From a virus: a stretch of 64,000 nucleotides of DNA. How positions within the stretch are numbered: position 1 is the first letter of the stretch; each line of letters starts with the position of its first letter. The notes beneath the pieces are model-generated. The model was not told the origin of the DNA. It saw only the letters and a program-made list of their open reading frames with translations, and made no database searches. Made by a program: the position numbers and the translations under genes. Where the stretch lies: the UHGV virus genome UHGV-0133741; one strand, written 5' to 3'. Shown here one piece after another: positions 35,515 to 36,245 of the stretch.

Positions 35515-36245
35515 GCACAACAGGTAAGGGTATTTTGCGACGTCGGAGATCGCCGAGCTTGGCAGAGGGTTCGAATCCCTACGAAGTACCCTTACCGTTG
35601 TGAGGAAGTGCAGCTCTTTGAAGCAACCAGAAGATAAGCATCTGGCTTCACAACATAAACCGCAGGAACGACCAATAAACGGTAGTCCGTATGGAGAACA
35701 CCCCGTTGAGGAAGAGGCCTGGCCGGAACCGTAACCGGCACTACAACGTTGAGAACACTGGCGTAACGGGGTCATATCCCAATCTACGAATAAATGTTGC
35801 GTTGCAGCGTGACAACCAGTGTTCTCAACATTGTGGTGAATGCACAGGCTGATGTGCCGCAACTACAGTAGTGCGCGCTTTGCGGGGCTTGCTACAACCC
35901 TGTGTCGGAGTTCAGCACCGACCATCACAGTTTGATTCTCTGGCATGAGCATAACGCTGAAATAAGTCCAGCATGGTGCGGCCCGATCACCCGCCGTTAG
36001 CTCCACGAAACGGAGCACGTAACAGGTAAGAGCATTCTCCTGTAACGGGTTCATATCCCAATCTACAGGTCCACCAAGAATGCTCTTTCCGTTGCGGTGA
36101 ATGCGGCTAAGCGCACGCGGGGAAATGGTTATATCTGTCCATTATTTCTCCTTGCTTCCCCGTCCACGGTGGATAACCAGCCAAAGGACACCGGGAGGCA
36201 CCCGGCACCGAAGCTTTTTTATTCGTTAAATAATGGAGTGAGAGG

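Follow-up and report, generated by a model that had tools for sequence, protein, structure and literature searches.

Hairpin modules coupled to a tRNA-like element in the ban operon leader of a P1-like phage and in the leaders of other phages

In the phage genome UHGV-0133741, of which we analysed a stretch of 64,000 nucleotides (nt; the window), three hairpin modules lie on the plus strand downstream of two tRNA genes, M1 at 35516-35602, M2 at 35739-35838 and M3 at 36018-36096, where a sequence-only reading of the window had noticed them. The window comes from a P1-like phage (Punavirus), with 98.6-99% identity to P1 records over positions 34700-36300, and by transfer of the P1 annotation the modules sit inside the long leader of the ban operon. 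We find that these hairpins are a family of sense-strand RNAs under selection for pairing, and that they are physically coupled to a second, covarying structure, a tRNA-like element (TLE), in untranslated leaders near tRNAs and near DicF-like and STnc100-like RNAs. The structures are conserved, keep to one strand and to recurring contexts, and are exchanged as modules between unrelated phages. The interpretation towards which we tentatively lean is that modules and TLEs may act as cleavage and stability determinants that divide leaders into discrete stable RNAs.

Hairpin modules and their relatives in other phages

M1, M2 and M3 fold more stably than dinucleotide shuffles of themselves (z = -5.6, -6.3 and -5.3, respectively; 0 of 200 shuffles were equally stable), and the spacers between them fold no better than shuffles. 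The sequence-only reading had missed a fourth module, M0 (35077-35157, plus strand), which lies upstream of the tRNA-Asn gene. M0 is an inverted repeat that folds at -48.4 kcal/mol (z = -5.9), has the same 5' arm as M1 (CACAACAGGTAAGGG), and pairs the A that is usually bulged in the family. The structure of M1 is CACAAC-A-GGTAAGGGTA / TACCCTTACC-GTTGTG around a mosaic core with a T-arm-like GGGTTCGAATCCC, and its body is exactly 74 nt long (GGTAAGG...CCTTACC, 35523-35596), as had been noticed. Each module had been described as having a long perfect stem, which is right for M1 only. The arms of M2 (ACAACGTTGAGAACACTGG / CCAGTGTTCTCAACATTGT) are 23 nt long and 91% complementary, with a single C.A mismatch, and they have UU:AA in place of the GG:CC of the consensus; a perfect M2 stem (CAACGTTGTG) is found in relatives. 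M3 (CGTAAC-A-GGTAAGAGCATTCT / AGAATGCTCTTTCC-GTTGCG) has AGAATGCTCTTTCC as its 3' arm and not an arm ending in TTACC, which leaves a U.U mismatch, and its arms, mismatch included, are identical to the consensus of the wider family. M2 (35763-35787) and M3 (36042-36066) do share a 25-nt box, GTAACGGG(G/T)TCATATCCCAATCTAC, at 96% identity. The 3' motif thought to follow all three modules is ACATTGTGGTGAATGC at M2 and CCGTTGCGGTGAATGC at M3, but CCGTTGTGAGGAAGTGC at M1, with GAGGAAGTGC in place of GGTGAATGC. Since the stems extend outwards as far as CACAAC/GTTGTG, this motif is in part the outer 3' arm of the hairpin itself.

The scaffold is not specific to P1-like phages: it also occurs in lambda, HK620, Stx-type prophages, virulent Klebsiella siphophages and the Escherichia coli K-12 prophage Qin. 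We searched the IMG/VR phage contigs with a pattern confined to the base of the stem (ACAACAGGTAAG, 35-65 nt, CCKTTGYG) and found matches in at least 120 contigs, which among the matches listed are mostly non-P1 contigs of prophage size (40-50 kb). Common to the matches is CACAAC-A-GGTAAGAGCATTG ... CAGTGCTCTTTCC-GTTGTG. In RNA form this stem, CACAAC-A-GGUAAGAGCAUUG ... CAGUGCUCUUUCC-GUUGUG, encloses at least 38 unrelated core types among 105 distinct modules. The conserved geometry comprises an outer CACAAC/GUUGUG helix, one bulged A and a U.U mismatch in a stem of about 18-20 bp. Core length stays at roughly 30-70 nt, and we found no secondary structure common to the 38 core types. Cores and scaffolds are reassorted: one core can recur between different arms and in different surroundings (downstream of a tRNA, a terminator or another unit), and at the position of M1 the scaffold of other P1-like genomes encloses an unrelated core (CCCTTATGGGGCTTGGCTTAAATGCA).

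By BLAST, 234 phage records match the modules, among them lambda, HK630, HK620, Stx phages, Shigella phage DS8, virulent Klebsiella siphophages, Klebsiella phage Magnus, and phages of Cronobacter, Hafnia, Edwardsiella, Erwinia and Pantoea. About 1014 of 5426 complete E. coli genomes match at least the 3' part of the module, and no RefSeq features lie beneath the E. coli matches listed. Wherever we inspected the gene context (the lambdoid contig L193, HK620, Klebsiella phage BUCT610, lambda and Qin), the copies are in phage or prophage operon leaders. Lambda has a consensus hairpin at 44788-44862 of NC_001416.1 (989-1063 of our locus L225), directly after the U-run of tR', the 6S RNA terminator. 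The hairpin of L193 lies 3' of an apparent Q gene, late promoter and tR'; that of HK620 is in the late leader, between the annotated qut site and the S gene; and that of Qin lies between ydfC and dicF (NC_000913.3, about 1649173-1649257; 13171-13257 of our locus L227, which covers 1636000-1650000). Among raw open reading frames (ORFs) we found no consistent neighbour gene in distant genomes; one distant locus lies between genes that by eye, with no family search, look like early recombination genes.

Lambda, P1 and the cryptic prophages of K-12 have been intensively studied, yet in the records we examined the array of hairpins and TLEs (the cassette) has no non-coding RNA annotation: it appears in lambda under a hypothetical 'orf-64', of which the hairpin is annotated solely as a part, in P1 under 'plp/upl', and in RefSeq E. 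coli under nothing. Could the repeats be a by-product of coding, with the region encoding minus-strand Plp and Upl proteins as annotated across the modules in P1 (NC_005856)? Minus-strand ORFs of 125 amino acids (35485-35862) and 63 amino acids (35863-36054) are indeed open in the window. The 125-residue frame, however, runs antisense through the tRNA-Thr gene; the products belong to no Pfam family (the only match, at E = 0.058, is below its cut-off); no RefSeq/PGAP feature lies under the P1-like plasmid matches listed; segments are replaced or deleted in relatives (D6, Ro157c2YLVW and other P1-like contigs in IMG/VR); and the variation tracks base-pairing, not codons. We consider this explanation extremely unlikely. 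The lack of a Pfam family and of conservation among relatives makes it probable that plp and upl are not genes, and neither they nor lambda orf-64 should probably be treated as such.

The contexts of 183 distinct modules follow a pattern. Upstream, 31 modules come directly after the U-run of a terminator and 100 after a CCGG/GGCAC-type hairpin or a tRNA 3' end. Downstream, 103 continue into GGTGAAT..., the start of a TLE, 5 adjoin a tRNA gene, and 10 have a lambda-type continuation; several modules share the first 3 nt of a tRNA-Arg or tRNA-Gly gene. The position in untranslated parts of operons, the 31 modules directly after terminators and the P1 leader with about 1.5 kb lacking a credible ORF would suit structures that act during transcription, by shielding from Rho, by pausing the polymerase, or as backup terminators or antiterminators. 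We regard this as quite improbable: the hairpins have no U-runs, Q-modified polymerase is already resistant to termination in lambdoid late operons, and generic shielding needs neither a conserved sequence nor the 7-bp helix and loop-loop pairing described below.

To sample the family by something other than its arms, we anchored a second retrieval on the 3' tail (GGTGAATGCGCAGGCTGATGCG) and measured the association of hairpin and tail with RNAfold and a simple stem counter. The tail-anchored hairpins have many unrelated yet complementary arms, for example CACACATGAGAGCGCTCC/GGAACGCTCTCATGTGTG, CAACAAGAAAGGGTTT/AAGCCCTTTCTTGTTG and CACATCGATAAACCCACT/AGTGGGGTTATCGATGTG. By RNAfold a hairpin ends at the tail in 114 of 129 distinct upstream sequences, and stems of at least 17 bp end there in 59 of 120 sequences, compared with 2 of 360 at control offsets. 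Among 108 diverse hairpins we counted 91 G.U pairs and only 6 A.C or C.A mismatches, which indicates that the structure is selected on the strand that has the sense of the operon, as a sense-strand RNA. The elements run in the same direction as the ban operon with its tRNAs, the late operons of lambda and HK620, the dicBF operon of Qin, and Q in L193. A covariation count within a single core family (aligned with MAFFT) gave 3 of 24 pairs and carries no information, since the sole member with very different arms was misaligned. The earlier proposal that the modules are structured RNAs is thus borne out: they lie on the transcribed strand of the tRNA-bearing ban leader, are conserved well beyond this genome, and show compensatory covariation.

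These data also bear on the idea that the arms act as DNA, either as linker homologies or as ends of a small mobile element that promote module exchange, the hairpin being incidental or formed only in single-stranded DNA. Near-identical arms and tails do occur in unrelated phages (P1, lambdoid and T1-like), recombinant modules with mismatched arms exist, the module lies at a classical mosaic boundary just after Q/PR'/tR', and in L193 a gene that we read by eye as an HNH endonuclease follows the cassette on its 3' side. But arms that diverge completely remain complementary, which recombination linkers would not need, and both the 91 to 6 excess of G.U over A.C and the constant orientation with transcription point to RNA. 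Target-site duplications were not found, nor was spread in host chromosomes outside prophage-like regions seen, nor a consistently adjacent recombinase. We think a DNA-level function unlikely, and the features that favour it are compatible with exchange as a secondary consequence of conservation. Two P1-like contigs illustrate such variation. In L039 the 5' arm of M2 and the 3' arm of M3 meet at the shared 25-nt box, everything between them having been deleted; the arms of this hybrid are non-complementary, and its existence suggests that the box can mediate recombination. L002 has an M3 core that lacks GGGTTCATATCCC. We also rejected two named kinds of DNA element. A miniature inverted-repeat element of the ERIC or MITE type does not fit arms that vary freely with pairing kept and borders free of duplications, and for an integron attC site the core-site match is loose (GCACAAC...GTTGTGA), there is no adjacent integrase, and the G.U excess points to the transcribed strand.

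A tRNA-like element adjoining the hairpin

The hairpin usually abuts a TLE, with which it overlaps by 3-4 nt. The layout of the TLE is GGUG-AAU, a 5-bp hairpin with the loop GGCUGA, a variable stretch, and a second 5-bp hairpin with the loop AGAUCAGCA, followed directly by CACC. The two loops are complementary (GCUGA:UCAGC), and a rare loop variant, GUCGA, is matched by UCGAC. The ends form an acceptor-like helix in which 3 nt plus GGUG face CACC plus 3 nt: in 171 sequences, with the second hairpin located without use of the acceptor pairing, positions 1-7 are 94-99% paired, positions 8 and 9 are 65% and 54% paired, and beyond these pairing falls to background; shifted registers fail. Each of positions 5-7 is occupied by four pair types. 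In a formal test on 76 full elements (MAFFT), 98.2% of cells were paired compared with 92.1% in shuffles, ten pairs had double changes against 3.9 expected, and the covariation score was 0.192 against 0.079 in shuffles (exceeded in 0 of 500), with slid controls at 52% or less. Because the outermost 3-4 bp of the hairpin draw on nucleotides that also begin the acceptor-like helix, the two helices either abut or compete.

The TLE has several features of a tRNA: a 7-bp acceptor-like helix, a three-nt linker, a D-like hairpin, and a T-like hairpin on the 3' strand of the acceptor, giving a stack of 7 + 5 = 12 bp with an elbow-like contact between the loops. Of what RNase P expects in a tRNA-like substrate, the 12-bp coaxial stack with an elbow is present, but the 5' leader is the base of the hairpin instead of a single strand, and the TLE has no CCA. 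By analogy it would resemble a tRNA with a variable insert (the TLE middle, of about 10 to 150 nt) instead of an anticodon arm. Like the tRNA family (RF00005), it combines these helices with a loop contact at the place of the elbow, and it lies among real tRNA genes; a replaceable region takes the place of the anticodon arm. It differs from tRNA in lacking CCA, canonical D- and T-loop sequences and an anticodon arm, in having as its loop contact a Watson-Crick kiss of 5 bp, and in being missed by both ARAGORN and the tRNA covariance model. Known tRNA-like mimics to which it may be likened are the MALAT1 mascRNA, viral 3' tRNA-like structures and engineered 'tRNA scaffolds'.

We built a covariance model of the TLE (R1), for which E-values are rough, and found two TLEs in the window, both on the plus strand. 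TLE-b (35832-35929) follows M2 and consists of UGUGGUG/CAUCACA, an AAU linker, a D-like GCACA-GGCUGA-UGUGC, a variable middle and a T-like GUCGG-AGUUCAGCA-CCGAC, with the GCUGA:UCAGC loop pairing. It scores 71.4 bits with R1 (E = 2.8e-18; its P1 homologue was in the seed) and was also found by an independent structural scan. TLE-c (36093-36212) follows M3 and resembles the small RNA STnc100, with UGCGGUG/CACCGAA, UGCG-GCUAAG-CGCA, a T-like CCGGG-AGGCA-CCCGG and a U-run. It was outside the seed and scores 20.9 bits (E = 7.7e-4); its closing helix is paired at 6 of 7 positions here and at 7 of 7 in P1. Beyond these two, R1 found nothing convincing in the 64 kb. By reading the sequence we picked out a possible compact TLE after M1 (35599-35652, plus strand; UGUGAGG/CUUCACA, T-like CCAGA-AGAUAAGCA-UCUGG), which we rejected because the covariance model gives it only 8.9 bits (E = 2.2). 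The 66 nt at 35589-35654, comprising the end of M1 and this look-alike, recur at 94% identity in many Klebsiella phage-plasmids of about 110 kb with no other similarity to the region.

R1 also matches HK620, Klebsiella phage BUCT610, D6, Ro157c2YLVW and a lambdoid contig, and more weakly Qin of K-12; in lambda it has no match at E <= 1. An exact 20-mer from the TLE, GGTGAATGCGCAGGCTGATG, occurs in 113 species-representative bacterial genomes, in a genome-wide scan that took no account of prophage context. The hosts are Enterobacterales, Burkholderiales, Pseudomonas, Aeromonas, Halomonadaceae, Xanthomonadales and Alphaproteobacteria, together with some metagenome-assembled genomes of other phyla, possibly mis-binned. 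The hairpin and the second hairpin surround most of 45 listed matches to the 20-mer. Exact conservation in 113 species argues for a conserved cellular partner, and near-invariant scaffold arms and TLE loops across very distant hosts suggest that such a partner would be sequence-specific.

The tRNA resemblance had been seen in the hairpins, which were proposed to be tRNA-derived or processing-signal elements; the second of these options is plausible. The resemblance belongs instead to this separate element, which starts with the shared 3' motif (GGUGAAUGC...) and had gone unrecognised. As a class the modules are not tRNA-derived: they have at least 38 hypervariable core types with no common fold, and a T-arm-like piece is present in the M1 core only. 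M1-M3 are all rejected as tRNAs: ARAGORN finds only Asn, Thr and Met(CAT) tRNAs in the window, and the Rfam tRNA model finds none on M0-M3 at E <= 10. The T-loop-like AGGG-TTCGAAT-CCCT of M1 has 5 extra nt (CGAAG) before its stem, and GGG(G/T)TCATATCCC in M2 and M3 lacks A58, so that none is a canonical T-loop.

A locus in Massilia sp. TS11 (L343, about 4480-4561) has a core that reads by eye as a whole tRNA, with the anticodon loop CTTCCAA, inside an extra stem CACAGC/GCTGTG and followed by a canonical TLE. This stem around an intact-looking tRNA would be expected if the modules were decayed tRNA genes whose stems are acceptor stems extended after loss of the tRNA body. So would the T-arm-like GGTTCGAATCC of M1, which lies in register with the T-loops of both neighbouring tRNAs (78-nt spacing); GTTCGA-type motifs in other cores; and the extra tRNAs (Tyr and Ser) that related P1-like phages have in this leader. 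Besides the negative tRNA scans, tRNA features are lacking from most of the 38 core types, compensatory changes maintain the stems, as they would not in decaying pseudogenes, and the scaffold is also found where no tRNA is near (lambda and most lambdoid loci). We judge such an origin very unlikely.

In Rfam 15, no family reaches its gathering threshold on any module or TLE. At E <= 10 the modules give only chance-level matches to microRNA hairpins, beside which there are sub-threshold matches to STnc100, transfer-messenger RNA (tmRNA) and YrlA; the scan gave no match to a hammerhead or other ribozyme, a riboswitch, GOLLD/ROOL, AgvB/AsxR or Esr41. The STnc100 model (RF02076) gives 35.0 bits at 36095-36210, over model positions 33-145 only and below its gathering score of 47; a lambdoid relative scores 33.1 bits, and the hairpin modules have no match. 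TLE-c aligns with STnc100/PasD over GGUGAAU...CACCGGGAGGCACCCGGCACC, with the closing helix and the CCGGG-AGGCA-CCCGG hairpin in common, and these RNAs are likewise prophage-borne and near tRNAs and other phage small RNAs. In contrast, the STnc100 model begins with 32 positions that are not a hairpin-module arm, STnc100 does not include the hairpin modules, and the commoner TLE class with GGCUGA/UCAGC loops, exemplified by TLE-b, has no Rfam match.

Two other groups invite comparison. The bacterial Y RNA-like YrlA (RF02553) joins a tRNA-like domain to a long stem and commonly occurs in phages and close to tRNAs. The sole match to it in the region, however, has 27.2 bits (threshold 69) and lies on the genuine tRNAs, not on the modules; no rsr/Ro gene is in the ORF list near the locus, with no search aimed at rsr made; and the cassette sets its long hairpin beside its tRNA-like part, as separate units, instead of closing them into one molecule. 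GOLLD and ROOL are phage and prophage RNAs, non-coding and highly structured, that lie in clusters with tRNA genes, in some cases with the tRNA genes inside them. The cassette has no sequence or model similarity to them, is an array of small units rather than a giant fold, and has hosts in the Proteobacteria, in contrast to Lactobacillales or rumen and lake metagenomes. Open-access full-text searches for the motif strings returned unrelated matches only, and topical searches returned nothing on these elements; absence from open-access text and from Rfam does not prove that they are undescribed. The cassette is a structured or tRNA-like non-coding RNA of phages and a member of no named family, and the modules are copies of an unannotated structured-RNA building block whose function is apparently undescribed.

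A possible role in dividing leader transcripts

RNase III processing hairpins, such as the early sites of T7 and the N leader and sib of lambda, and the precursor stems of ribosomal RNA sit between the units of a transcript. M0-M3 and the stems of the family (17-23 bp with one bulge and one mismatch) have the size of an RNase III substrate hairpin. Like those sites, they recur as double-stranded hairpins of about 20 bp whose internal mismatches are conserved, and they lie between functional units; the large hypervariable cores and the attached TLE have no counterpart in the T7 or lambda sites. If, as we tentatively propose, the cassette determines cleavage and stability, the leader would be transcribed as one unit, and to the cell an array of hairpins and TLEs might look like a string of tRNA precursors separated by double-stranded hairpins. 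RNase III could cut the long stems, and either RNase P or RNase III the 5' edge of the TLE. The cuts would release discrete pieces that resist nucleases, namely tRNAs, small RNAs like DicF and STnc100/PasD, and the hairpins; these last would cap 3' ends and insulate adjacent structures as they fold. The hypervariable cores and TLE middles would then be cargo on a stable scaffold, some of it perhaps small regulators or decoys.

The dicBF operon of Qin bears on this proposal. DicF lies at 13383-13435 of L227, and an STnc100-like TLE (23.6 bits with R1, E = 1e-4) lies between dicF and dicB at 13455-13580, with its start at 13455-13457. In their statements on dicBF, PMC5069750 and PMC9438474, citing Faubladier 1990, give the 3' end of a 72-nt DicF species as arising through RNase III-dependent processing of the dicBF transcript. 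Counted from the 5' end of DicF, 72 nt end at 13454, which is 1-3 nt before the start of the TLE and next to its extended acceptor-like helix. As described in those sources, the DicF end is the sole experimental hint of cutting in vivo at the borders of the elements. RNase III target-mapping papers name dicF solely as a citation. A second point in favour is that the Rfam relative closest to TLE-c, STnc100/PasD of prophages, is a small RNA that has been detected as RNA.

Several considerations weigh against such a role. The coincidence at DicF rests on a reported size (72 nt) and not on a mapped end. RNase P prefers a single-stranded 5' leader and should be hindered by a hairpin flush with the acceptor-like helix, and the TLE has no CCA end. 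The sequence requirements of RNase III are weak, which leaves near-invariant arms and TLE loops in distant hosts unexplained. Because lambda has the hairpin and no TLE, the hairpin must be able to work alone. The variants in L002 and L039 exist in nature, so single copies of the module are dispensable. Finally, the family samples were gathered by exact-match patterns, in which the anchor segments are fixed by construction and near-identical P1-like contigs are over-represented, so the apparent sequence conservation of the anchor segments is inflated.

The proposal closest to cleavage and stabilisation, and not exclusive with it, places the function in the variable parts: cores and TLE middles would be trans-acting RNAs, whether regulators, sponges or decoys against RNA-targeting defences, to which the stems give stability and maturation. 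Cores are discrete alleles that recur in unrelated phages with differing flanks; they keep to about 30-70 nt and do not collapse, with TLE middles of about 10-150 nt. The relatives of TLE-c, STnc100 and PasD, have been reported as small RNAs with target sets (PasD from RIL-seq), and the accompanying tRNAs, too, vary by phage (Tyr, Ser, Arg and Gly). On the other hand the cores have no common accessible seed or fold, a partly deleted core survives in nature (L002), and the diversity may reflect lack of constraint together with recombination. We regard a function of this kind as possible, if somewhat doubtful.

If the leaders are indeed divided in this way, the cassette would offer an entry to how phages mature and stabilise tRNAs and small RNAs such as DicF and STnc100/PasD, and could explain why tRNA and small-RNA genes cluster at fixed points of phage operons. 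The TLE would also be a natural tRNA-like scaffold with interchangeable inserts.

The ban leader and a tmRNA-like tag frame

We transferred the annotation of the leader from P1 (NC_005856) through an alignment of 98.6% identity, in which the window coordinate is the locus coordinate plus 33199. The order is P1ban/P2ban, dicF-like region, tRNA-Asn, tRNA-Thr, M1, M2 and M3, all on the plus strand. The P1ban/P2ban promoter, with its C1 operator and transcript start, is at 34680-34708. The 'dicF-like region' (34803-34904) is homologous to the stretch immediately upstream of dicF in Qin of K-12, and ends, as read off the sequence, in an intrinsic-terminator hairpin with a U-run (about 34870-34896). 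With a terminator of its own, it may give rise to a small RNA analogous to DicF, with a different 3' part, directly after Pban. The genes for tRNA-Asn (GTT; 35361-35436) and tRNA-Thr (TGT; 35439-35514) were found by ARAGORN and score 74.5 and 71.9 bits with the Rfam tRNA model. A third tRNA with a CAT anticodon, at 37318-37393, is Met(CAT) according to ARAGORN and Ile2 in the P1 annotation. In P1 itself the leader is followed by tciA-C, the third tRNA and ban. In the window tciA is replaced from about 36246 by ORFs for a 78-residue membrane protein and a 275-residue lipoprotein-like product (36246-37290), an arrangement that matches phage Ro157c2YLVW.

Upstream of M0 lies a frame resembling the resume-codon frame of tmRNA, GCA AAC GAT GAT CTG ATG ATG GTA GCG GCC TAA (ANDDLMMVAA*; 34957-34989, plus strand). 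Its 5' flank, from about 34905, is tmRNA-5'-like (GCGACTTTGCGG) and resembles nt 9-31 of tmRNA. No start codon lies in frame, 8 codons upstream there is a conserved in-frame TAG, and the stop codon of the tag lies within a small hairpin. Across the loci that we fetched, 166 copies of the tag encode 15 peptides, all of 10 residues (AN[DE][DEN]xx[LM]x[AV][AP]), with synonymous differences between copies, and in 144 of the 166 a consensus hairpin module follows within 300 nt downstream; the frame occurs in at least 120 IMG/VR contigs. At the tag, Rfam tmRNA models stay below their threshold of 47 bits: tmRNA_permuted reaches 24.1 in the window, and the scores in HK620 and BUCT610 are 20-26. ARAGORN, too, detects no tmRNA. 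The frame is like tmRNA (RF00023 / RF04321) in being of the resume-codon type without a start and in encoding 10-residue tags that resemble ANDENYALAA of E. coli. It differs in that we found by eye no tRNA-like domain with CCA, whether one-piece, two-piece or based on a TLE, and hence none having the G3.U70 pair and CCA of tmRNA. Linked to the cassette in this way, the tag frame bears on translation quality control during infection.

The linkage raises a further possibility, which we put forward with some scepticism: that hairpin, TLE and tag frame are one hitherto unrecognised RNA system of phages that infect Proteobacteria, present even in lambda and P1, which mimics tRNA and tmRNA precursors as a decoy or hijacking device and does more than punctuate transcripts. 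It might conceivably engage a host machine that is universally conserved, such as the enzymes of tRNA maturation, the ribosome together with SmpB, or defence nucleases directed at tRNAs. The near-invariant loops and arms could, on the same doubtful footing, be a contact surface, with the hypervariable cores and middles providing specificity or cargo.

The virulent siphophage BUCT610 of Klebsiella carries the cassette (1200-1870 of our locus L340) as a tag frame, two modules and two TLEs. It is preceded by a consensus-looking sigma-70 promoter (TTGACA, 17 nt, TAGATT), its 3' end is a tRNA 3' fragment (TTCGAATCCTGTCGCGGGAACCA), and a minus-strand 'hypothetical protein' is annotated over it. Elsewhere in the window, gathering-level Rfam matches at 14384-14436, 14504-14589 and 18517-18691 correspond to the C4 antisense RNA with its a1/b1 targets, which are expected in a P1-like phage, and to the sok antitoxin RNA.

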